A stretch of DNA of 64,000 bases from an uncultured Planctomycetales bacterium (GTDB lineage Bacteria; Planctomycetota; MHYJ01; JACPRB01). Location: contig CAZGKV010000002.1 in the NCBI GenBank assembly GCA_964526305.1, forward strand, positions 9,599 through 73,598, given 5' to 3'. A program made the position numbers and the translations under genes. Under the pieces are notes generated by a model that saw nothing but the letters and a program-made list of their open reading frames with translations, was not told the DNA's origin and did no database searches. This document shows positions 1,394-63,816 of this stretch, piece after piece; position 1 is the first letter of the stretch, and each line of letters starts with the position of its first letter.

Positions 1394-4300
1394 ATGGAAG
1401 ATGCTCCAAAGGAAAACGTCCCGGACGATCTCCGCGCCGCGCGTCGCGCCCTTGAAATGGGGCTCCTCGGCGAAACCGATTTCGAGACGGTCGTCCAGGA
1501 ACTGAAGAAGGGGCCGTCACAACTTCTGGCCACGGTGCTCCGCGAGGTCAAAGCGAATTCGAAGGGAGAGGATACTTCCGACACCACGGTGCCCGCTCGA
1601 TCCCTTCCCCCTCGGATCGGTAAGTACGAGATCCAGTCCGAATTGGGTCGGGGCGGAATGGGGGTCGTCTACAAGGCCTTCGACCCGAGCCTGGGGCGCA
1701 CGGTGGCCGTCAAGTGCCTCCTCGACTCCGCCGAACCCGAAATGGTGAAGAGATTCGAGCGCGAGGCGCGGACGGTCGCGAGACTCTCCCATCCGAACAT
1801 CGTCCCCATTTACGAAGTCGGCGTGGAGGGAGATCGCCGGTTCATCGCCATGGAGTTCGTGGAAGGTACTCCGCTCGATCGGGTGAAGCTCGATTACCAT
1901 CGCGCGGCCGAGGCCATGATCGACGTGAGCCGCGCGGTCCATTTCGCCCACCTTCACGGGATCATCCATCGCGACCTCAAGCCGCAAAACCTCATGCTCT
2001 CCAAGGACGGCCATGTCTGGGTGATGGACTTCGGCATCGCGCACCAACGGGGCGGGAAAGGCACGCTCACGGCGACGGGCGACGTCATGGGGACTCCATC
2101 CTTCATGAGCCCGGAGCAGGCCTCCGGTCGAAGTCACGAAGTGGACGCGCGAAGCGACGTGTGGAGTCTGGGAGCCACGCTCTACGCGCTCACGACCGAC
2201 CGCGCCCCGTTCCGCGGGGACACGTTGCACGCCATCCTCTTCGATATTCTCTCCACCGACCCCGTGCGGCCTCGTGCGGTGCGCGGCGACGTTCCGGTGG
2301 ATCTCGAGACGATCACCCTCAAGTGCCTGGAAAAGGACCCTGCCCGCCGTTACCTCTCGGCCGGGGAGCTTGCGGACGATCTCCGGCGATGGCTCGACGG
2401 CGACTCCATCAAGGCGCGCCCTGCATCCGTGGCGTATCGGATCCGAAAATCGCTCGCGAAACGGAAGGCGGTCGTCGCCGCCTTGGGGCTCGGATTCGTC
2501 GCGCTCGTCGTGGCGCTGGTGTTCCTCCTTCCGAGGCTCTCTGAGACCGAGCGGAAACTCTCGGAAACCGAGCAGCAGCGGCAGGCGGGGCGGGCGAAGC
2601 TCTCGGATGCCGAAGCGGAACTCCAACTGTGGAGTCGCATCGCCACCGTCCAAGCGGAGGCGGAACGACTGGCGCGAGTCGGGGAGACGAAGAGGGGAGC
2701 GAAACGCCTGGAGGAGGGGATCTCGATCTGCCGCGAAGTGCTCGCCCGCCACGAATTCGCCGCCGGGCGCTTCTTCCTCGGGAGGCTGCTCTACCAGCGG
2801 GGAAGCGGAGACGAGGCGCTGGCCGAACTCGATCGGGCTCTCGAGATGGATCCGCAGCTCGGCGAAGCCAGCGTGTGCCGAGGCATTCTGTTGGCGCGAC
2901 AGTACGAGGATCGACTCGGAGGGCTGGAGCGCGGCTTTGTCGCCGCGATCCCCGTGCGCGACGGTCGCGAGCTCGAGGAACTGGATCCCGTTCTCAAGGA
3001 TCTTCGAAGTCGTATCGAGAAGGACCTTTCCGTGTCCGTCGGCCGGAGCGCGTATTTCACGGAGGTGGAGAAGGCGTATCATCGGGGCGAGTTTCATCGG
3101 ATCCGAGGCGAGTGGGACAAGGCGACCAAGCTCTACCGCCGGATGCTCTCCCTGGATCCCGCTCAGACCGGGGCGCGGCTGGCCCTTGCCTGGATCGCCC
3201 GAATGGAGCGACGACTCGACGAGGCGCTGCAGGAACTGGACAAAGCCATCGATCACGATCGCGGTTCCTGGACGGCCTACTACGTCCGGAGCGGCGTGTA
3301 TCACGACCGGGTGGAAGCGGATCCCTATCACGCGGAGTCCGCGACGTGGCGCACGCGCTCGCTCGAAGACATCGAACGCGCCCTGAAGCTCAAGGACGAG
3401 TCCGACCCCGTCCTCCTCAACAATCGAGCCATTCTTCGCTTGGAGATGGGAAACGTGGGGGGAGCGCGGGAAGACCTCCAGCGCGCGCGGGGCCGGAGCC
3501 CCAATCTCGCCCTGGCGCACGGGAATTTCGGAAACGTCGCCAAGCGGCTGGGAGACTCGAGCGCGGCGCGCGGCGATCGTCGCGAAGCGATCGCGCATTG
3601 GAAGGAAGCCGTAGAGAGTTTCGACAAGGCCCTGAGCCTGGAGCCCGGTCTCATCGGCGCCTATCTGAACCGCGCCGACTTGCGGCGCTCCTTCGGCGAT
3701 TTCGCTGGTGCGACCGAAGACGCGCAGCGCGCCATGGCGATCCCCTCGCTGGCTCCCGATGTCCACTTCGTTCTGGGGAAGATCTTCCAGGACCAGGGAG
3801 AATTCACCCGGGCGATCGAACAATTCCGCAAGGCTCTGGCGAAACGGAATCGATTCCCCCATGCCTTGGTAGAGTGCGCTGCGGCCCTCCATCGGCGCGG
3901 AGCCTCCCAAGTCCCCCCTCAAACGGCGTGGGACGACTGGGAGCAAGCGCTCCGGGATTGCGCGGAGGCGCTGTCGATTCGGCCGCGATTCCCCGAAGCG
4001 TTCGGCGTTCGTGGAAACGTCCTCCGCGCGCGGGGCGATCTTCTTCAGGGCTCCAAGCCGGCCGAGGCGCTCCTCGAGCTCGATTCCGCGTTGAAGGACT
4101 ATGGCTCGTCGCTGGAACTGGATCCGAATCTCGTGGATTCCTACAACAATCGCGGGGCTACGTACCACACCCGAGGATTCGTTCTCCAGAAACTCGGCCG
4201 AGGCGAAGATGCGCTGGCCAGTTGGGACGCGGCGATCGAGGACTACGGTCGCGCCCTCGCGAAGGCTCCGGAGCACCGAGGGGCTCTGGAGAATCGGATT

Positions 4301-6578: not shown

Positions 6579-7301
6579 ATGGTGCTGGCCCTTGTCTGGA
6601 TGCTCCTCGGAGACGAGGAGGAATTGGCCAAACTCCTCTCGGAAAAGGACGACGCGGTCCGGGCCCGCAATGAGGCGGCGATTCTCGCACGCGGATCGGA
6701 GGCCCTCCCCGCTCTCGACTCGATTGCGCTCAAGGGAGAGGACACCATTCGCGGCCGCGCGTCGGCGCTCAAAGGCAGGATCGCCGAGAACGGCGCCGAG
6801 GCGGGGCTCTCCGAACGAGAGCGGCTCCATCGCGTCCGGGTCTACTTGTACCCGTCCTCGTGCCTCTGTTGCGAATCTCGGCTCCGAGGATTGGAGGCGG
6901 CCGCGCGGCGCCTGAGCGACATGGGGGATGTCCTGGCCGTGCACGCGGGACGCGCGCGTCTTCCCCCGCGCCGGGAGGGCGAGGCCTACGTCCTCTCCGT
7001 CTTCGTACGGCAGGGCGCGCCCGTCGTCCTTCGACCGATCGCGAGGATCTTGGGAGAAACGCTCCGACACGGGGGAGTCGGCGCCGGAGACGCCGCGCTT
7101 CCGGCATCGATCTTTGCGGAGGCGGACGTGCTGGTCGAGGCTTGGGGTGCCGCGCAAGCCCGATTCGTGGAGACCCCGGCGGGACAGCGGTTCCCGACGT
7201 CGGATCCGGATGCGAGAGGATCGGCTCGCGTGCTTCTTCGACTGCGCGGATTCGACCGGGAACCCGGGGGAAAACCGCCTATTCCGCGGCCCCGTTCTTG
7301 A
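6579..7301 (+). CDS. hypothetical protein (HEAT-like N-terminal repeats)
   Basis: Long ORF in a coding-like frame (DDAVRARNEAAILARGSEALPAL). No motif recognised. Convergent 22-bp overlap with the next gene. Confidence 0.4.
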   Translation: MVLALVWMLLGDEEELAKLLSEKDDAVRARNEAAILARGSEALPALDSIALKGEDTIRGRASALKGRIAENGAEAGLSERERLHRVRVYLYPSSCLCCESRLRGLEAAARRLSDMGDVLAVHAGRARLPPRREGEAYVLSVFVRQGAPVVLRPIARILGETLRHGGVGAGDAALPASIFAEADVLVEAWGAAQARFVETPAGQRFPTSDPDARGSARVLLRLRGFDREPGGKPPIPRPRS

Positions 7302-8205
7302 GGATGTCGAAGGGGGTCATCTCGCGGAGCCGGCAATTCCCCAGCGGAACAATGAACGTATCCACGAAGGCGTGCTGTCCCGAGACGCATGCGTGGCTAA
7401 CCATGTCGGTAAACACCATCCACGCGGAGAAGGGCTTGAAATCGAATTGCCGGTGACCATCGGGCGTCTCTTGGAATTCCCGGCTCTCCTTCATGAAGTT
7501 GTGGAATTTCCGCATGAGCCGGTCGTAGGGAGAGGTGTCCGCCATTTTGGCGAGCGGGAAGGCGGAGGCGACCGTATCTACAAGTCCGCTATACAGTCGG
7601 TCCACCGTACCTTCCCTCAGGCGATCGGGCAACGGCCGATCCGGGCGGATGCCCGCGACCTTGCCGTACTTTCGGTAGAGTTCGGGGAACGCCCCCTTGG
7701 AGATCCAGACGCGGTCTTCGCTCGGATTGATGTTGACGAAAAACCGGAGCACCCGGTCGCCGTGCGTCGCTCCGTAGGCGCCGGCGTCGACGTGGACCAA
7801 CTCGTTGCTGGCACGTACGGACAGATTCCGGCCGCGCTCCTGGAGCGGACGGTAACTCGATGTCCCGATGAGCCACTTGTTCGCGAGCGTCGGAATCCGC
7901 TGCCGGAGGAAGGCCTGCGCCCGATCGCTGTGGGCTCGCAGGATTCGCTCCACTCTCGCGATAGCCGCGAGATCGCCCTTGGCGCCGATGATCCGTCCGG
8001 CTTCCGGATGGTAGCTGATGTTCTTGAGCTTGACGGACTTGGGCATTTCCTGCCGAAGGAACGCGAGCTCGGTTCCTTCGGGAAGTTCGATCGGACATTC
8101 CGGAAAGTAGACGATCTTTCCGTTCTCGAGCTCGTCGGAAACGGCCGTGGGTCCCGCGGATGCGAGATCGGCCGGGGTGAGCGTCGCGAGCATACGGGCG
8201 ACCAT
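7279..8205 (-). CDS. Kdo hydroxylase (KdoO)-like Fe(II)/2-oxoglutarate dioxygenase family protein
   Basis: 308 aa with a GKIVYFPECP-type N-terminus and an HVD...H candidate 2-His-1-carboxylate motif (HVDAGAYGATHGDRVLRFFVNINP), as remembered for KdoO family proteins. Family call from memory, not computed. Confidence 0.5.
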   Translation of the reverse strand: MVARMLATLTPADLASAGPTAVSDELENGKIVYFPECPIELPEGTELAFLRQEMPKSVKLKNISYHPEAGRIIGAKGDLAAIARVERILRAHSDRAQAFLRQRIPTLANKWLIGTSSYRPLQERGRNLSVRASNELVHVDAGAYGATHGDRVLRFFVNINPSEDRVWISKGAFPELYRKYGKVAGIRPDRPLPDRLREGTVDRLYSGLVDTVASAFPLAKMADTSPYDRLMRKFHNFMKESREFQETPDGHRQFDFKPFSAWMVFTDMVSHACVSGQHAFVDTFIVPLGNCRLREMTPFDILKNGAAE

Positions 8206-8260
8206 GGTAGTGAGTCCGGAGCCCGGAGTCCAGAGCGGCGACCGCCGCTTAGTTGTCGCG

Positions 8261-25705: not shown

Positions 25706-26017
25706 ATGTGGCCGTGGATCATCCTGGCGGCCGTATGGGCTGCCGCGGGGTATCAGGCGTGGCACGCGTATCGCCAGGCGCGGATGGCGGAGCCCGCGAA
25801 TCCGCTCGCGGCGATCGCGGCGCGGGTGAAGGTGGGGCTCGGTTTCCTCTGGGCGATCCTCATGCTCTTGGCCGGAGCGATCGCGTCGTTGACGGTGGCC
25901 TCGGCCGAGAAGAATCGCGTCGCCTCCTGGGCGGCCGGGGGGACGATGGCGCTGGCGGTCTTGGGCGGGATGGGAGCGTGGAAGTGGTTCTGGAGGCGTC
26001 GACGAACGGCGTCGTGA
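25706..26017 (+). CDS. small membrane protein, hypothetical (3 TM)
   Basis: 103 aa hydrophobic ORF between the Ehr-like operon and the ion-channel gene. Stop 26017 lies 8 nt before the channel ATG. Confidence 0.4.
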   Translation: MWPWIILAAVWAAAGYQAWHAYRQARMAEPANPLAAIAARVKVGLGFLWAILMLLAGAIASLTVASAEKNRVASWAAGGTMALAVLGGMGAWKWFWRRRRTAS

Positions 26018-26025
26018 CACCGGGA

Positions 26026-26787
26026 ATGGAACTCAAGAACGTCGTAGAATCGAAGTGGTTCCGCACTACGGTGGCGCTGCTCATCGGCCTGAATGCGCTG
26101 GTGGTAGGGGCCGAGACGTATCCCCAAGTTACAAGCCGCTTCGGGAAATGGCTTGAGGCGACCGATCGCATCATTCTCGTCCTCTTCGCGGTGGAACTGG
26201 TGCTTCGGTTCATCGCCACGCCGCCTCGGTATCGGTTTTTCCTCAACGGATGGAATCTCTTCGACATCGTGATCGTGAGTGCCGGATTCGTGCCGGCAAC
26301 CGAATACCTCTCGGTCCTGCGGTTGCTGCGGATCATCCGAATCCTCCGCGCCGTGACGGTGATGCCCCATCTGCAGAAACTGGTCCTGGCGCTCTTGAGG
26401 AGTCTCCCTTCTCTGGGGCACATCGCCTTCCTACTCGGCCTTCTCTTCTTCGCGTTCGGGGCGACGGGTACCTATCTCTTCCGGGACGTGGATCCGAACA
26501 ACTTCGGCTCCCTTCACCGATCGATGCTGACGCTCTTCGGCGTCGTCACGCTGGAGGGATGGGTCAGCGTGATGGAGGGGCTGCTGAAGCACAAACCATG
26601 GGCGTGGCTGTACTTCGTCAGCTTCATCCTCCTCGGAACGTTCATCTCCATGAACCTGTTCGTCGGCGTCCTCGTGAACAACCTCCAATCCGCCGAGGCG
26701 GAAGACAAGGAGGCTCACGACAAGGCCGTACGCGATCGCCTGGCCCGGATCGAAGAGAAACTCGACGCCCTCCTCCCTCCCCGATGA
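26026..26787 (+). CDS. voltage-gated cation channel (NaChBac/NavAb-like single-domain ion transport protein)
   Basis: S4 voltage sensor with Arg every third residue (LSVLRLLRIIRILRAV). Pore/selectivity region FGVVTLEGWVSVM (TLESW-like). 6-TM architecture. ATG 26026 chosen rather than the upstream in-frame 25708. Confidence 0.8.
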   Translation: MELKNVVESKWFRTTVALLIGLNALVVGAETYPQVTSRFGKWLEATDRIILVLFAVELVLRFIATPPRYRFFLNGWNLFDIVIVSAGFVPATEYLSVLRLLRIIRILRAVTVMPHLQKLVLALLRSLPSLGHIAFLLGLLFFAFGATGTYLFRDVDPNNFGSLHRSMLTLFGVVTLEGWVSVMEGLLKHKPWAWLYFVSFILLGTFISMNLFVGVLVNNLQSAEAEDKEAHDKAVRDRLARIEEKLDALLPPR

Positions 26788-26852
26788 TATAGAAATAGCC
26801 AGGCTTCTTTTATATCATGATATAAAAGAAGCCTGGCTATTTCTATATCATC
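26783..26852. repeat. perfect 70-bp AT-rich palindrome (35-bp arms, no spacer)
   Basis: GATGATATAGAAATAGCCAGGCTTCTTTTATATCAT|GATATAAAAGAAGCCTGGCTATTTCTATATCATC is exactly self-reverse-complementary. It starts inside the channel stop codon (TGA 26785-26787). About 30% GC in a ~67% GC context. No T-tract follows. Confidence 0.9.
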
Positions 26853-26927
26853 GAGACAAAGGGGGGCGCCGACTCCATGCGGCCGGGTGTTGACGGCGAG
26901 GCCTCAACCCGCTATGAATCTCCCTTG

Positions 26928-39048: not shown

Positions 39049-39106
39049 CGGTCGGCGATAATCGAGACGGCCTCCGCTCCCCTCGAGCGGGGGCCGTCTA
39101 TTCTCC

Positions 39107-52700: not shown

Positions 52701-54196
52701 GGGTTCTTCTCCTTGCGCTTGACGATGAGGACGTTCCGGCCCTGGGGCGTCAGATACTTCACGGCCGCTTCGCGCACCTGACTCGCCGTCACCGCCATGA
52801 CGCGCTTGAGGTAGTCGAAGGCTTCGTGCCAGTCGGCGTTGATTTCGGCGTATCCGAGCGCGTCGCCGATTCCTTTGTTCGACTGAAGCTGGCGGGCCGT
52901 GGTCGCCAGCGATTGGTTCTTCACTTTCTGCAGTTCACGCTCGGTCACTCCGTCCTTTTTCAGCCCCTCGACGATCTCCTCGATTCCCCTCTCCAGGTCG
53001 GAGAAGGAGACTCCCTCCTTGGGGCGCGCGTCGACATCCGCCATTCCGCCGTACCGCAGCGCCCAATACGAGGATCCCGCGGCGAGAGCGAGGTTTTTCT
53101 CCTCGACGAGAATGCGATGGAGGCGGCCGGAGGGACCGTCGAGGATCATCATCGCGAGGTCCAGCGCGGCGGTATCGCTGTGGGCGGCGCCGGGCGCGTG
53201 CCATCGAACGGTCAAGGAGGGCTGCGATTTCGCTTCGGCATGCATGCGCCGTTCCGCGACCTGCTCGGATTCTCGGGTTACGATCGCCGGCGGTTCGTCC
53301 TTGTTTCGCGGGATGCGCCCGAAATAACGCGTGGCGAGATCCCGGATCTTGGCGGGCTCCACGTCTCCGACGAAGATCGCGGTACACCGATGAGGGGAGT
53401 AGTAGATCCGGAAGTACTCCAGCGCATCGGCCAGAGTGTACATCTCGATATCGCTCATCCATCCGATGACGGGCCAACTGTATGGGTGGGACTGCCAAAA
53501 CATGGCCCGAAAGGCTTCGTGGATGAGTCCCGTGGGCGTCGAGTCGTACCGCATCCGCCGTTCTTCCTTGACGACGTCCCGCTCCGGATAGAACTCGCGG
53601 AAGACGGGTCGGAGGAAGCGGTCCGATTCCAACCAGAAAAAGAGTTCGACCTTGTTCGAAGGAAGCTCGATGAAGTAGCGGGTCCAATCGTAGTAGGTCG
53701 AGGCGTTGAGGCCGGTCCCACCGGCTCCCATGTAGAGTTTCGAGATGTGCTCGCTCACCGTGATCTTCTTCTGCTCGGCGATCAACTCTTCGTATCGCGC
53801 CGTGTGTTTCCGGAGAGCCTGGCTGAGCCTCGTCTGCTCCTCCATGTTCGGCTTCGATCCCCGGCGTTCGAATTCCCGGTGGAGAAGCTGGATCTCACGG
53901 ACTCGACCCATGACCTGGTCCACCTCGGCGTTGATCTCCGCATCGCGCTTCGCGTCTGTGGTGCCGATGGTGGCCGTTCCCTTGAACATCATGTGTTCGA
54001 AGAAATGCGAGAGTCCCGTGATGCCGGGACGTTCGTCGACCGATCCGACTTTCCAGTACAGGGCGCAGAAAACCCGGGGGGTGTCCCGCCGAGGAACCGC
54101 CAGAATCTTCATCCCGTTCTCGAGGCGAAACTCCTCGACAGGGAGGCGGAGCTCGGTGTCTTGCGCCGCGACGAGAACGCACAGCAGGGCGATCAT
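52697..54196 (-). CDS. M16 family Zn peptidase (catalytic subunit)
   Basis: Signal peptide MIALLCVLVAAQ. Inverted zinc motif GLSHFFEHMMFKGT (HxxEH). Downstream E residues. Confidence 0.85.
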   Translation of the reverse strand: MIALLCVLVAAQDTELRLPVEEFRLENGMKILAVPRRDTPRVFCALYWKVGSVDERPGITGLSHFFEHMMFKGTATIGTTDAKRDAEINAEVDQVMGRVREIQLLHREFERRGSKPNMEEQTRLSQALRKHTARYEELIAEQKKITVSEHISKLYMGAGGTGLNASTYYDWTRYFIELPSNKVELFFWLESDRFLRPVFREFYPERDVVKEERRMRYDSTPTGLIHEAFRAMFWQSHPYSWPVIGWMSDIEMYTLADALEYFRIYYSPHRCTAIFVGDVEPAKIRDLATRYFGRIPRNKDEPPAIVTRESEQVAERRMHAEAKSQPSLTVRWHAPGAAHSDTAALDLAMMILDGPSGRLHRILVEEKNLALAAGSSYWALRYGGMADVDARPKEGVSFSDLERGIEEIVEGLKKDGVTERELQKVKNQSLATTARQLQSNKGIGDALGYAEINADWHEAFDYLKRVMAVTASQVREAAVKYLTPQGRNVLIVKRKEKNP

Positions 54197-54300
54197 GGGA
54201 TCCCTCCTACGAATCGGCCCATTCTAGGGCGGATCGGAGGGCGGTCAATGAAATCCAAGTGCGTTTGACTTCCGCATGCCCGACCGAGTACCCTTCCCCC

Positions 54301-56813: not shown

Positions 56814-57997
56814 CGGATCACCCCGAGGTTCCGTCCCACCTTTTCGAAGGCCCCGAGCGCGATGTCGATGTCCGAGTCTTCGTGAGCGGCGCTGATCTGG
56901 ACGCGGATTCGCGCTTGCCCTTGGGGGACGACCGGATAGCTGAAGCCGATGACGTAGATGCCTTCGTCCAGCATTGTTCGAGCGAATTCCTGGGCGAGTT
57001 TGGCCTCGTGGAGCATGATGGGGACGATGGGCGTCTGGCCCGGCTTGACGGAGAACCCGCGCCCGACGATCCCCTCGCGAAACCGTTTCGTGTTCCGCTC
57101 CAGCTTGTCGCGAAGTTCCGTAGACCGTCCGAGGAGTTCGAGGGCCCGGGTCGCCGCTCCGACGATCGGAGGCGGCAGGGTATTGGAGAACAGGTAGGGT
57201 CGCGAGCGCTGCCGTAGGATTTCCACGATCTCGCGCCGCGCGGCCGTGAATCCGCCCGCCGCGCCGCCCAGGGCCTTTCCCAAGGTGCTCGTGACGACGT
57301 CGATCTTCCCCTGAACGCCGTGATGCTCCGGCGTTCCACGCCCGGTCTTTCCGATGAACCCGGTCGCGTGGGAATCGTCGACCATGACGAGAGCGCGGTA
57401 GCGCTCGGCCAGTTCGCAAATCTCGGGGAGCTTCGCGATGTCGCCGTCCATGGAGAAGACGCCGTCCGTGGCGACGAGTCGGACCCGTTGCGCCTGGGCC
57501 TTCTTGAGACACTCTTCCAGTTGCGTCATGTCGGCATGGGCATACCGGTACCGCACCGCCTTGCACAGGCGGATCCCGTCGATGATGCTCGCGTGGTTGA
57601 GGGCGTCGCTGATCACGGCGTCCGATTCGCCCAAGAGCGTCTCGAACAGTCCGCCGTTGGCGTCGAAGCAACTCGTGTACAGGATCGCGTCGTCGGTGCC
57701 GAGGAAGCCGGCGAGCGTCCGCTCCAAATTCTGATGGATGTCCTGAGTGCCGCAGATGAATCGAACGGACGAGAGCCCGTATCCGTGCGAGTCGAGGGCG
57801 GCGCGCGCCGCGGCGACGATTTCCGGATGGGAGGAGAGACCGAGGTAGTTGTTCGCGCAGAAGTTCAGGACCGGCCCGCGAGGCACTCGAATGCGGGCTC
57901 CCTGCGGCCCGAGAATCGTACGCTCCTCCTTGTAGAGGCCCGCCTCGCGGATGGCGCGGAGTTCCTCGTCGAGAATGGGTTTGATCGTATGAGTCAT
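56810..57997 (-). CDS. kbl: 2-amino-3-ketobutyrate CoA ligase (glycine C-acetyltransferase)
   Basis: 395 aa. PLP-Lys region [26 protein letters not shown] and full-length AONS-family pattern. Confidence 0.9.
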
Positions 57998-58077
57998 GGG
58001 GCGGATTCTACGCCCTCGAGCGGGGGCGTCAATGAAATCTCTTTGCTGTCGGGAGGGAGGGACTATACTGGCCCATC

Positions 58078-59517: not shown

Positions 59518-61029
59518 TCACGGCACCCGTTTCCATCCCTCGGACTCAGGCTGGCCCGGCCAGGCCCTGACGGCCTTTCCCTTCAGATCCTGGCCGTACA
59601 CCTCGCCGACCGCGTTGATGATCAAGGTGCGCTCTCCGCTGACGCCATGACGCTCGGGGAAGGCGCAGAAGGCGAACGTGGAGAGGTGATGGACCGCCCA
59701 CCCGCTGCGATCGGTGTCTATCGCAAAGGGCTCGCCGGAGGCTCCCCGGTTCAGAACGGCGAAGAAGTACCCGCGGTGAGGTCGGGCGTGGAGAGGGGGC
59801 CCGAGGCGGGCCTCGTCCGATAGCGGCGCCGCATCGGCGCACGCGATCCCTTCCTCGATCAGAGCGAGGGGCGCACCCGCCACCCGGAGGCGATGGAGAC
59901 CCGACACGTCCCCGGTCCAAAAATCCCGCACGCCGTTCCGGTCGCGATCGTGTTCTTGGAACTCGTATTCGGAACGGAGGAGGGCACGGAGAGCCCCGAC
60001 CGCCTCGGCTTCGTTGACTCGGCATTCCACGAGAGAGCGGCGAAGACGTCCGGTGGCCGAGGCGACGCGACCGCGACAATCGATCCGCAGATTCTCCAGC
60101 CACTCCTCGAATCCTCCCAGAGCGGCCCGAGTCCGCGGTTCGTCGTCTCCCGCACCGTATCCAACGACATAGGAAAAGGCCGCTTCTTCCGGAGAGGTCG
60201 ACCGAAGACTCGCTCCCGCTCCCTGGGACCCCGCGGGAGCCGAAGCGAGGAGCCCGCGCGTCATCGTCGACATGCGCGTCCGCTCCTCGACTCCCGGCGA
60301 TTTCGAGAGCCACATCCAATTTCCCCGCGGAAGCCGACCGAGAGTCCTCCTCTGCGCCGGGGTCAGCCCTTGGAGAAAACGCTTTGCGCGACCTTCGCGC
60401 GCCTCCAGAGCTTCGAGGACAAGGGGGGGTGGGCCGGAGAGGATTCGGGTCCGAGAAACCCAGACCGCCTCTTCCGATCGCGGGTAGACGTAGAGCCGCT
60501 CGACCTTGGACGAGTCGACGACGTACCCGCGCGAGAGAAGATCGCTGCCGATCGAGGGCGGTGTGAAGTCTCCGGCGTGCACGGTCAACGATTTCCCCGC
60601 ACGGAAGACCGTGGCCGTCTCCTTCGTGTCGCCGAAGGGAAGAGCTTCCGGGGGAAAGAACGAGATGCCCTTGGAGGTGCGATAGACCACGAAGTCTCCA
60701 TCGGGAAGTTCGCTCACGAGTTCGGGGATCGGGGAGGAGGGGAACAGATAGAACCAGCCGACGATTCCGACGGCGACAACGACGATGCCGGCGGCGACCC
60801 GAATTCCGATCTTGCGGCCGAGCCGGCGGCCGGAGGGGCGCGGCGCGAGAAGCGCTCCGAGCGCCTCGGGGTCGGGTTCGCGTTCGACGATCCGGAATCC
60901 AGGATCGGAGGACTCGATCGGCGCGATGACCACTTCGGTGCATGCGCGGCATCGGACACGGCGGCCGGCCAGGGCGTCGTCGATCCGGAGTCGCGCGGAG
61001 CAGCGGGGACAGGCGAACGCTACGGGCAC
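59518..61029 (-). CDS. zinc-ribbon (MJ0042-type CxxC..CxxC) membrane protein, hypothetical
   Basis: N-terminal ACPRCSARLRIDDALAGRRVRCRAC. TM VAAGIVVVAVGIVGWFYLF. Large C-terminal domain of unknown function. Start uncertain: GTG 61029 (MPVAFACPRC...) preferred over the track's GTG 61074; both lie inside the 43-bp palindrome. Confidence 0.55.
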   Translation of the reverse strand: MPVAFACPRCSARLRIDDALAGRRVRCRACTEVVIAPIESSDPGFRIVEREPDPEALGALLAPRPSGRRLGRKIGIRVAAGIVVVAVGIVGWFYLFPSSPIPELVSELPDGDFVVYRTSKGISFFPPEALPFGDTKETATVFRAGKSLTVHAGDFTPPSIGSDLLSRGYVVDSSKVERLYVYPRSEEAVWVSRTRILSGPPPLVLEALEAREGRAKRFLQGLTPAQRRTLGRLPRGNWMWLSKSPGVEERTRMSTMTRGLLASAPAGSQGAGASLRSTSPEEAAFSYVVGYGAGDDEPRTRAALGGFEEWLENLRIDCRGRVASATGRLRRSLVECRVNEAEAVGALRALLRSEYEFQEHDRDRNGVRDFWTGDVSGLHRLRVAGAPLALIEEGIACADAAPLSDEARLGPPLHARPHRGYFFAVLNRGASGEPFAIDTDRSGWAVHHLSTFAFCAFPERHGVSGERTLIINAVGEVYGQDLKGKAVRAWPGQPESEGWKRVP

Positions 61030-61068
61030 TGGTAAAAGGTAGCCCGTGCGGCTATCTTTTACCAGTGC
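61026..61068. repeat. 43-bp near-perfect palindrome (19-bp arms, 5-bp spacer) covering the divergent start-codon region
   Basis: GCACTGGTAAAAGGTAGCC-CGTGC-GGCTATCTTTTACCAGTGC, with 1 mismatch between arms. Both strands therefore encode similar peptides (…ALVKGSPCGYLLPV… / …ALVKDSRTGYLLPV…). Confidence 0.9.
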
Positions 61069-62255
61069 GCGCACGCACCATTCGAGGCCGCCTCCTGACT
61101 CCCACGTCCCGCGGCCGTTGGCGCGAAGAGAGGGATGCGACGATCCTGGTCGCTCCCGACGGTCGCATCGAGGCGGTGAGGCCGGGGGGAACGTCGGATC
61201 ACGATTGGCGTCCCCATCTGCTGTTCCCGGGATTGATCGACACCCATGCCCATGTGCCTCAGCACTCGGTATGCGGCGTTCGGCGGGGCCGACTCCTGGA
61301 TTGGCTGCGCGAGCTGGTCTTTCCGCTCGAGGCGAAGTGCCGGGGAGAGAATGCGGAGGCGTTCTTCCGGGAAGCGCTTCGGAACGGAACCGTTGCGGGG
61401 GCGTTCTATTCTTCGGCGTGGCCCGAATCCGCCGACGCGAGCCGAGCGACGATGCGCAAGCTCGGAGTGCGTGGCTGGATCGGGATGCCTCTGATGGACC
61501 TTCAGGTGTACCGGGACGATTTGCGAAGCCTCCCTCTCCGCGAGCGCACGAGGAGGGTGATCCGGGAGCTGGAGGAGCAGGTACGGCGCGATGGTTCGAT
61601 TCGCACCGCGATCACGCCGCGGTTCGCGCTCTCCTGCTCGGACGAGTTGCTGGAGGCGGCGGGATCGTTCTCGCTGCCGGTCCAAACGCATATCGCGGAG
61701 CAGCCGGCGGAGGTCCGCCTCGCGCGCCGTAGAGGAAAAGACTATCTCGCCATCTACGAGCGGGCGCGACTGGTTCGTTCGGAGTCGATATTCGCTCACG
61801 GAGTGTGGCTCTCTGCTTCGGAGTGGACTCGGTTGCGGCGGGCGGGGGCGACGATCTCTCATTGCCCGACGTCGAATCTCTTCCTGGGGAGCGGAGTAAT
61901 GGATTGGCGGATCGCCCGGCGGGGACACGTGACGCTGGGATCGGACGTGGGCGCGGGTCCGACGCTGTCGATGTACGAGGTGATGCGATGCGCATGGGCG
62001 GCGCAGGCGTCGCGGGGGAGGGAGGCGCCGGCGGCGCGCGAGCTCCTCGAGGCCGCCACCGTCGGAGGCGCGGCCGCCCTGGGAGAACCTCTGGGTTGTC
62101 TCGAGCCGGGGTGTCGCGCGACGCTTCAGGTTCTCGATCGAGACGCGCTTCTTCTCTCCGAGGAGGACTCGCTCGACGACGTCTTGTCGCGCATCGTCCA
62201 CCGCGGCGGACTCCAGGCGATCCGGGCCGTCTACGTCGACGGAAAGCGGCGGTAG
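61063..62255 (+). CDS. amidohydrolase superfamily deaminase (guanine deaminase / MTA-SAH deaminase-like)
   Basis: GRIEAV...HLLFPGLIDTHAHVPQ (HxH metal site), later HIAE, HGVWL, GSDVGAG (metal/catalytic residues). GTG 61063 chosen as start. The track's ATG 60942 would overlap the divergent gene by more than 100 nt. Confidence 0.7.
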
Positions 62256-62294
62256 TTCTTGGGCGGCGTTCGCCTCCCTGCTATAGTGGGCGCC

Positions 62295-62576
62295 ATGACG
62301 GCGACCTTCTCCATCGATGCGACGCCGAATCCCAACGCGAGGAAGATCACCGTCTCCGCTCCGATCTCTCCGGGAACCCCATTGACGTTCAATTCCGCCG
62401 TAGAAGCGGAGAAGCATCCCCTGGTTCGCGCACTCTTCGCGATCCCGGGAGTGCGAAGCGTTTTCGTCGTGAACAATTTCGCCACCGTCACCAAGGAACC
62501 CGATGCCGATTGGAACGCCATCGAGCCCCGGCTGAGGGACGCCGTGACGCAGCAGCTCCAGGGAAAGGCGCCGTGA
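62295..62576 (+). CDS. Nfu_N (scaffold protein Nfu/NifU N-terminal) domain protein
   Basis: FSIDATPNPNARKITVSAPI...LVRALFAIPGVRSVFVVNNFATVTKEPDADWNAIEP matches the Nfu_N pattern (TPNPN...GV.SVF...FITVTK) remembered from NFU1/NfuA. No Cys, so not a cluster-binding NifU C-domain. Confidence 0.65.
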   Translation: MTATFSIDATPNPNARKITVSAPISPGTPLTFNSAVEAEKHPLVRALFAIPGVRSVFVVNNFATVTKEPDADWNAIEPRLRDAVTQQLQGKAP

Positions 62577-63550
62577 CGCTCTGGCGGAACATCGCGGGTC
62601 GCTCGATCGAAGGACGGTGTCCCACGAGGGACGAAGGGCGCGCCGTTCTCGACTGTTCCGACTCCGAGTTCCTCGGTCTCCTGGACGCGGCCTACCGGGT
62701 GCGATTTCGCTTCCACGGAAATCGCGTGAAGGTGCATGTCCTCCTGAATGCCATGAGCGGACTATGTCCGGAGGACTGCGGCTTCTGCTCCCAATCCCGC
62801 GTCGCCCACGGAGACATCCCGCGGTATCGGCTCCTCTCGAAGGAGGAAATCGTCTCGGCGGCTCGTCGCGCTAAGGAAGCCAAGGCGTGGAAATTCTGCA
62901 TCGTCACTTCCACGCGAGGTCCGAACGAGAAGCAGCTCGATGTCCTCTGCGACGCCGTGCGGGAGATCAAGTCCTCGGTCGGGATTCGGGTCTGCACCTC
63001 CCTGGGCCTCTTGAACGGCGGGCAGGCGCGGCGACTCAAGGAGGCGGGGGTCGATCGATTCAATCACAATCTGGAAACCAGCCGGCGACACTTTCCCAGG
63101 ATCTGCACGACGCACGGATACGACGATCGAGTCCGGACCCTGGAGCGGGTGCACGAGGCGGGAATGGAGGCGTGCGCGGGGGGAATCGTCGGGATGGGGG
63201 AAGACGACGAGGACGTCCTCGATTGGGCCTTCGCTCTCCGCGAACTCGAAGTCGAGTCGATCCCCGTCAACTTTCTCGATCCGAGGCCGGGAACGCCTTT
63301 GGGAGAAGTCCCGCGCCCGGAACCGCGGCGCTGTCTGCGCATCCTGTGCCTCGTCCGATTCGTGAATCCCACCCGAGACATCCGGGCCGCGGGAGGGCGG
63401 GAAACGGCGCTTCGGATGCTGCAACCATTGGCGCTGTACCCCTGCAATTCCATCTTCACGAACGGGTATCTGACGACTCCGGGAAATGAGTCCTCCGAGG
63501 ACATCCGCATGATCGAAGATCTCGGGTTCGAAGTCGAGGTGGAGTCGTGA
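62573..63550 (+). CDS. bioB: biotin synthase (radical SAM)
   Basis: GTG 62573 overlaps the previous stop. Radical-SAM CPEDCGFCSQS. BioB pattern (KFCIVTSTRGP, NHNLETS, GGIVGMGE). Confidence 0.9.
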   Translation: MTLWRNIAGRSIEGRCPTRDEGRAVLDCSDSEFLGLLDAAYRVRFRFHGNRVKVHVLLNAMSGLCPEDCGFCSQSRVAHGDIPRYRLLSKEEIVSAARRAKEAKAWKFCIVTSTRGPNEKQLDVLCDAVREIKSSVGIRVCTSLGLLNGGQARRLKEAGVDRFNHNLETSRRHFPRICTTHGYDDRVRTLERVHEAGMEACAGGIVGMGEDDEDVLDWAFALRELEVESIPVNFLDPRPGTPLGEVPRPEPRRCLRILCLVRFVNPTRDIRAAGGRETALRMLQPLALYPCNSIFTNGYLTTPGNESSEDIRMIEDLGFEVEVES

Positions 63551-63816
63551 CGAAGGCGCAGGCGGCCGGATTGGCCTTGCTCAATGTGCTCGCGTGCGTC
63601 GTCGCCGCGGCCATTTCCTTCCAATTCACCTGGAAAAAATGGTGGCTGCCCCTTCTCCTTGTCGGGGGCGTTTGTGCCCTCGTTTCCTCCCTCCATCTGG
63701 AGTTCGTCCAGCGGAAGTTGGAGGAGTCGCCGGAGAAGACGAAGGTCACGTGGGCGGGGTACGTCCTTTTCGCCGTCGGCATTCTTCTCGCCATCGGGGC
63801 GTTCCGGATTCAGTGA
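63547..63816 (+). CDS. small membrane protein, hypothetical (2-3 TM)
   Basis: GTG 63547 overlaps the bioB stop. Hydrophobic 89-aa ORF. Stop overlaps the next gene start. Confidence 0.4.
   Translation: MTKAQAAGLALLNVLACVVAAAISFQFTWKKWWLPLLLVGGVCALVSSLHLEFVQRKLEESPEKTKVTWAGYVLFAVGILLAIGAFRIQ

Follow-up and report, generated by a model that had tools for sequence, protein, structure and literature searches.

The 64-kb stretch analyzed here (64,000 nucleotides from an uncultured Planctomycetales bacterium, hereafter the window) carries a 43-bp palindrome between two divergent genes. The gene on the minus strand encodes a zinc-ribbon protein. The gene on the plus strand encodes an amidohydrolase and is the first of an operon that further comprises Nfu_N (62259-62576), BioB (62573-63550) and an 89-residue protein (63547-63816). 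The BioB of this operon is genuine, as it scores 384 bits against a cut-off of 225. The palindrome consists of two arms of 19 nt each (61026-61044 and 61050-61068) around the 5-nt center CGTGC, and the sole mismatch between the arms is G 61039 against the complement of T 61055. Its position, its 19-bp arms and the single mismatch had been reported in a first-pass annotation of the window, and the exact sequence is confirmed here. A repeat finder lengthens the arms to 22 nt (61023-61044 and 61050-61071) at 91% complementarity.

The palindrome is far beyond chance. The longest arm among 20 Markov-1 random windows was 12-15 nt, as against the 19 nt observed, and the element is the second-longest hairpin of the 64-kb window. 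Folded as RNA, it reaches -37.6 kcal/mol (z = -7.2), which was equaled by none of 200 shuffles. The hairpin of the opposite strand reaches -34.8 kcal/mol, and the stem takes in both GTG codons on either strand. The DNA fold gives -23.2 kcal/mol per strand (z = -7.4). We can exclude an assembly artefact because the palindrome is 100% identical in two other JGI assemblies (the same-species contigs L009 and L010) and relatives preserve the gene order to either side of it: GH3, the minus-strand zinc-ribbon/DUF2950 gene, and next the amidohydrolase, Nfu and BioB. L009 and L010 are identical to the window over 5.4-5.9 kb and hence uninformative on constraint.

Both start codons could be fixed by comparison with orthologues. 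In four relatives, the minus-strand orthologues all start at the column of V16 in the longest open reading frame, which is GTG 61029, and they share the N-terminal pattern M-x-I-x-F-x-C. For the plus gene, the conserved block IRGHLLTPT follows GTG 61065 at a distance of 2-9 residues in 6/6 sequences. The protein database entry P0001 is identical to the plus product, with 396 residues and the same start, and the JGI gene caller picked the same two starts, 36 bp apart, with a minus product of 503 residues. With the starts fixed at GTG 61029 and GTG 61065, the palindrome comprises the entire 35-bp intergenic region (61030-61064) plus both start codons, and its symmetry stops one base past each of them. 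The minus-strand start of the first-pass annotation thus stands; its plus-strand GTG at 61063 is to be moved to 61065-61067, and the gap between the starts, which does lie entirely within the palindrome, is 35 bp and not about 33. The near-identical N-terminal peptides that it had predicted for the two proteins (RALVKGSPCGYLLPV and RALVKDSRTGYLLPV) are present in the longest open reading frames, but they are not translated since the real start codons come only after them.

What the first-pass annotation missed is that the arms themselves have the makeup of promoter-plus-start-codon modules. Read outward, each arm shows a hexamer, six nucleotides and a start codon, namely TATCTT-TTACCA-GTG (plus strand) and TACCTT-TTACCA-GTG (minus strand). 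At both starts, a TAnnnT hexamer ends within the 5-8 nt before ATG or GTG that are typical of leaderless promoters, and the feature is kept at the orthologous genes and common in the lineage. A Shine-Dalgarno sequence (GGAG, GAGG or AGGA) is absent 6-16 nt upstream of both starts. The candidate -35 hexamers of the two promoters (Table 1) fall on sequences that would serve the other promoter as well: 61030-61035 is also the minus-promoter discriminator, and 61059-61064 is also the plus-promoter discriminator.

Table 1 Features of the palindrome and its flanking genes, in window coordinates.
Feature	Position	Strand	Description
43-bp palindrome	61026..61068	.	GCACTGGTAAAAGGTAGCC-CGTGC-GGCTATCTTTTACCAGTGC
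Candidate -10 TATCTT, plus promoter	61053..61058	+	6 nt (TTACCA) before GTG 61065
Candidate -10 TACCTT, minus promoter	61036..61041	-	6 nt (TTACCA) before GTG 61029
Candidate -35 TGGTAA, plus promoter	61030..61035	+	17-bp spacer; read from sequence; 3/6 match to TTGACA
Candidate -35 TGGTAA, minus promoter	61059..61064	-	17-bp spacer; read from sequence
Amidohydrolase gene	61065..62255	+	396 aa, GTG start; guanine-deaminase-like, below the equivalog cut-off
Zinc-ribbon gene	59518..61029	-	503 aa, GTG start 61029; N-terminal MJ0042-type zinc ribbon, C-terminal DUF2950 match

Five relatives at 62-76% protein identity were compared; the closest named relative is a metagenome-assembled genome that NCBI labels Planctomycetes. 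The contig of P0007, which carries the C-terminal part of the gene only, was left out of the upstream comparison. The palindrome is absent from 5/5 relatives, and where the sequence covers both flanking genes the stretch between them spans 63-170 bp and cannot be aligned. The position of the hexamer is kept all the same. Upstream of the plus gene, TAGGAT, TAGAAT or TACAAT stands 6-8 nt before the GTG in 5/5 relatives. The minus-strand neighbor is preceded by TATAAT or TATTCT at 6-8 nt, without a Shine-Dalgarno sequence, in three (L001, L005 and L007) of the four relatives whose sequence includes it; the exception is L004, where TATAAT is followed by a leader that contains one. Over all genes that come first in their unit, TAnnnT precedes the start by 6-10 nt in about 15 of the 21 found in the relatives, by our own count and with the start of the L005 plus gene corrected to GTG 3119. 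The rate of TAnnnT at random positions is 1.1%. The window shows the same habit, with TANNNT 5-9 nt before 11/102 first starts as against 9/909 internal RTG codons and a spacing peak at 6-7 nt, and the internal genes of operons have GGAG-type Shine-Dalgarno sequences. In L005 and L007, bioB has its own promoter. Planctomycetes are among the phyla in which few genes have a Shine-Dalgarno sequence and an upstream nucleotide bias is seen, a bias for which the survey in question invokes leaderless mRNA, ribosomal protein S1 or both (PMC5397173).

With moderate confidence, we read the palindrome as two overlapping mirror-image leaderless promoters, that is, a compact two-way promoter, and the comparative evidence from the relatives is the strongest part of the case. 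Each module of about 20 bp would consist of a -10 hexamer (TATCTT or TACCTT), the 6-nt discriminator TTACCA and the GTG, which would double as +1 and start codon and place the transcription start sites at 61029 and 61065. The two predicted sites are 36 bp apart, and because of this distance each putative -35 element would coincide with the discriminator of the opposite promoter, while each -10 element would lie in the opposite spacer. RNA polymerase would bind in one orientation or the other, never in both together, and as two polymerases could not occupy the site at the same time the two directions should compete. Each mRNA would begin at the outer edge of the palindrome and contain about 4 nt of it, so that the hairpin would never be transcribed whole.

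Some points weigh against this reading. A generic sigma-70 scan of 60500-61600 reported no promoter, although its thresholds are too strict for such weak hexamers. TATCTT, TACCTT and especially TGGTAA (3/6) are weaker than the good promoters of the organism, TTGAC(G/C)-N16-TAGAAT. In E. coli, GUG supports leaderless translation less efficiently than AUG does; GTG is also the codon used for the plus gene by 5/5 relatives. Only about half of each arm is under constraint from promoter function, and 18/19 matching positions need a further cause. Candidates are a duplication of recent date and selection that acts on the symmetry of a binding site or structure.

Two further divergent gene pairs of the window show good promoters of the organism, which read GATTTCATTGAC(G/C)-N16-TAGAAT. 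They lie at 54225-54260 and 58010-58045, are nearly identical, and precede two unrelated minus-strand genes (starts 54196 and 57997). The gene at 54196 has a leader with a Shine-Dalgarno sequence, and the one at 57997 is leaderless (TAGAAT-7 nt-ATG). The pair appears to yield the strong promoter consensus of the organism. Both promoters also share the upstream extension GATTTCA, which might be a binding site or a UP-like element.

As regards the origin of the symmetry, the arms of the window are identical at 18/21 positions, while in the relatives the promoters of these two genes match each other at only 7-10/21. The dyad identity is 0.83 here versus mostly 0.22-0.40 at the other divergent pairs of the window. 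The divergent pair 49321/49412, with a dyad identity of 0.56, was dropped as the repeat finder shows no inverted repeat there. Because both the relatives and the other divergent pairs score so low, the near-perfect symmetry is specific to the lineage and unnecessary for the function of the gene pair. It probably originated by inverted duplication (a template switch) of one promoter-plus-start module. An A-tract/GGT quasi-palindrome occurs at the same place in L005 and L007 (GGAAAAAGGtatcgggggCCTTTTCGG and GAAAAAGGTtccggacACCTTTTT, respectively). It resembles AAAAGGT...CTTTT of the window, a weak hint that it may be the ancestral seed of the palindrome.

In L005 (3070-3100) and L007 (3126-3150), this small inverted repeat of an A-tract plus GGT (GGAAAAAGG...CCTTTTCGG and GAAAAAGGT...ACCTTTTT) is located just upstream of the -10 element of the plus gene, at about -36 to -43 from each start, the position of proximal UP-element subsites. 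In L001, dense runs of GGACTC/GAGTCC fill the regions upstream of promoters (3060-3236; ~7150-7198), and they include a long inverted repeat, cccagagtcccgagtc ... gactcgggactctggg, in the spacer that separates the two divergent genes. Units of this type are also present in the window at ~8205-8245, upstream of the minus-strand ATG 8193. L002 carries tandem TTGCCTA units at the equivalent intergenic position. The repeats of L001 and L002 differ, and thus different relatives carry different repeats in this intergenic region.

Two groups of known promoters are close to this arrangement. In the symmetric bidirectional promoters described by Warman, Forrest, Wade and Grainger, divergent starts are 7-25 bp apart, mostly 18 bp, and the -10 elements overlap on opposite strands (bioRxiv 10.1101/2020.01.31.928960; PMC12825309). 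The likeness lies in pseudo-symmetric DNA, divergent transcription and the exclusion of one polymerase orientation by the other. In contrast, the predicted transcription start sites are 36 bp apart here, and the -10 elements (61036-61041 and 61053-61058) are separated by 11 bp and do not overlap; the coincidence here is between -35 and discriminator regions. That class also confines its symmetry to a few key positions, whereas the symmetry in the window is near-perfect over 43 bp. The second group is formed by leaderless promoters with the -10 element 6-8 nt before RTG, which are known in Actinobacteria, Deinococcus-Thermus and archaea (PMC5397173, citing Shell et al. 2015). As in those, the -10 element abuts the start, first genes lack and internal genes possess a Shine-Dalgarno sequence, and both GTG and ATG serve as starts; the difference is that the present lineage is poorly studied and its promoters are predicted from sequence. 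The locus would be a tidy, fairly ordinary case of known promoter biology that reveals no new kind of system. New would be only the fusion of two leaderless modules as a palindrome.

If the two-promoter reading is correct, the locus illustrates the compactness that leaderless mRNAs allow in a bacterial regulatory region, with 35 bp between the starts and the promoter as the sole expression signal of each gene. Its layout would be a natural blueprint for a minimal bidirectional expression cassette and would offer a simple system for studying how polymerases compete where divergent promoters overlap. The locus further provides evidence at the sequence level that leaderless first genes are common in this little-studied lineage, a point that bears on the calling of start codons in such metagenome-assembled genomes. 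We tentatively suggest, as an extension that is doubtful as a whole, that one inverted duplication could replace an entire divergent regulatory region, since about 20 bp would hold both the transcription and the translation signals. The locus would then be a 35-bp symmetric unit with mutually exclusive expression, the perfect dyad of which was maybe recruited as an operator or a supercoil-sensitive cruciform.

Besides or instead of the promoter pair, the palindrome could be the operator of a dimeric transcription factor that occupies both promoters and thereby co-regulates both units, like BirA at bioO or TetR at tetA/tetR. This is rather unlikely in our view, even if the symmetry exceeds what two promoters need, as the arm identities in the window and the relatives indicate. 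The inner core TAGCC-N5-GGCTA has a spacing of about 12 bp from center to center, as is typical of helix-turn-helix dimers, and is expected 0.07 times per window. Yet the half-site is found nowhere else in the 64-kb window, nor at up to three mismatches in 51 kb of orthologous DNA. The relatives do not have the palindrome at all, and the roughly 15 kb to its left contain no regulator gene. That the symmetry ends one base past each start codon is explained by duplication of a promoter module and not by an operator. The shared operator that the first-pass annotation had named as one candidate thus finds no support in the uniqueness of the half-site, in the neighboring genes or in BirA.

BirA was considered since the plus operon holds a true bioB and biotin operons are classically controlled via a palindrome of about 40 bp between divergent promoters (PMC5640590). 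Like E. coli bioO, the present palindrome is of about this length, covers two divergent promoters (bioA and bioBFCD in E. coli) and is located next to a bioB operon; unlike there, the BirA consensus is unmatched, only one side is biotin-related and the relatives are without the site. We rejected bioO because the palindrome has 6/18 mismatches to the consensus TTGTAAACC-N14/15-GGTTTACAA (PMC545781), a spacer of N17 and no AACC/GGTT core. Matches this good to a BirA-type site occur 2-20 times (mean ~11) per random window, and none with six or fewer mismatches was found in the orthologous intergenic regions of L001-L008. The minus-side aminotransferase of L005 and L007 is Kbl and not BioF, which also counts against bioO. 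Collection scans with the permissive pattern TGGTAAAAG-N15-19-CTTTTACCA listed chance matches from unrelated AT-rich genomes; the inner GTAGCC/GGCTA was in none of the matches listed, and the contigs of the window itself were not among them.

A cruciform is a very improbable explanation of the palindrome. Negative supercoiling between the diverging polymerases would extrude the palindrome and bury both -10 elements, and the damping of both promoters would amount to a supercoiling-sensitive feedback. According to the twin-domain model, negative supercoils build up between divergent promoters, that is, at the very location of the palindrome. Arms of 19 bp with a 5-nt center and a DNA fold of this stability would suit extrusion, and so would the A/T-rich stretches TAAAAG and CTTTTA in the outer half of the arms, in a genome of 64% GC. 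The idea is inferential throughout. Nothing in the sequence parts it from the neutral outcome of a duplication, and the relatives do without such a palindrome at this gene pair.

The first-pass annotation had also offered an mRNA 5' hairpin that occludes both initiation sites. For this, the palindrome would have to be transcribed whole as a 5' untranslated region, which we regard as scarcely credible. The hairpin is indeed very stable on either strand, with both GTG codons in its stem. But its transcription would have to start from promoters within the coding region on the opposite side, of which the scan of 60500-61600 detected none. In every relative, the conserved TAnnnT hexamer 6-8 nt ahead of the start speaks for leaderless transcripts, and with the -10 element 6 nt before each GTG such transcripts would hold only about 4 nt of the palindrome. 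Moreover, a -37 kcal/mol stem over a start without a Shine-Dalgarno sequence would abolish translation rather than modulate it. A search against Rfam gave no match at gathering thresholds in the whole window; the best hits of the palindrome were chance matches to microRNA hairpins (E 0.4-9), far short of the threshold.

Equally far-fetched is the view of the palindrome as the trace or terminus of a mobile element, or as a site of recombination (MITE/REP-like, an IS200/IS605-type hairpin or att/dif-like): a second, unrelated AT-rich palindrome at 26780-26855 suggests that palindrome-generating processes are active in this genome, but the present one is single-copy in the window, has no match in viral contigs, phages or plasmids, adjoins no transposase or recombinase and no flanking direct repeats, and carries in both arms functional-looking start codons in frame with conserved N-termini. 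A (bidirectional) intrinsic terminator was rejected, as the scan of 60500-61600 found none and both flanking genes point away from the palindrome.

The genes downstream of the plus promoter form a recurrent cluster. The amidohydrolase, BioB and a conserved protein of about 90 residues are kept together across the clade (L001, L004, L005, L007 and the window at 61065-63816). The scaffold protein Nfu_N is usually part of the cluster and is absent in L005 and L007, and a methyltransferase and endonuclease IV often come next. The linkage of the amidohydrolase with BioB differs from a standard biotin operon and may indicate an unrecognised step or a salvage function. The start of the amidohydrolase was miscalled in the deposited annotation of L005/L006 (GCA_002998485.1; L005 2990-4318, 442 residues). 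It was placed 43 codons too early, at an ATG that lies 5 nt from the start of the divergent gene. The alignment of the orthologues, together with the motif TACAAT-6 nt-GTG, points to GTG 3119 as the real start. This call seems to exemplify the miscalling of start codons due to leaderless architecture.

The palindrome at 26780-26855 is larger and more unusual than the one at 61026-61068. It is a near-perfect 76-bp palindrome with 38-nt arms, one mismatch and no loop (CCCGATGATATAGAAATAGCCAGGCTTCTTTTATATCA|TGATATAAAAGAAGCCTGGCTATTTCTATATCATCGAG); the sequence is AT-rich, and its DNA fold reaches -36.6 kcal/mol (z = -17). It extends from the stop codon of an ion-channel-like gene (25708-26787) to a point 21 nt short of an ABC-ATPase gene (26877). 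Searches for plasmid and Rfam matches to it gave none, and it could be a terminator, an operator or the remnant of a mobile element. Of the motifs tried as a link between the two palindromes (GGCT.TCTTTTA, AAAGNTAGCC and TAGCC-N-GGCTA), none recurs above chance. A third structure, at 39065-39099, is the GC-rich hairpin AGACGGCCTCCGCTCccctcGAGCGGGGGCCGTCT with 15-nt arms and a 5-nt loop, followed by ATTCT, which looks like an intrinsic terminator behind a small glycine-rich, zinc-ribbon-like open reading frame.

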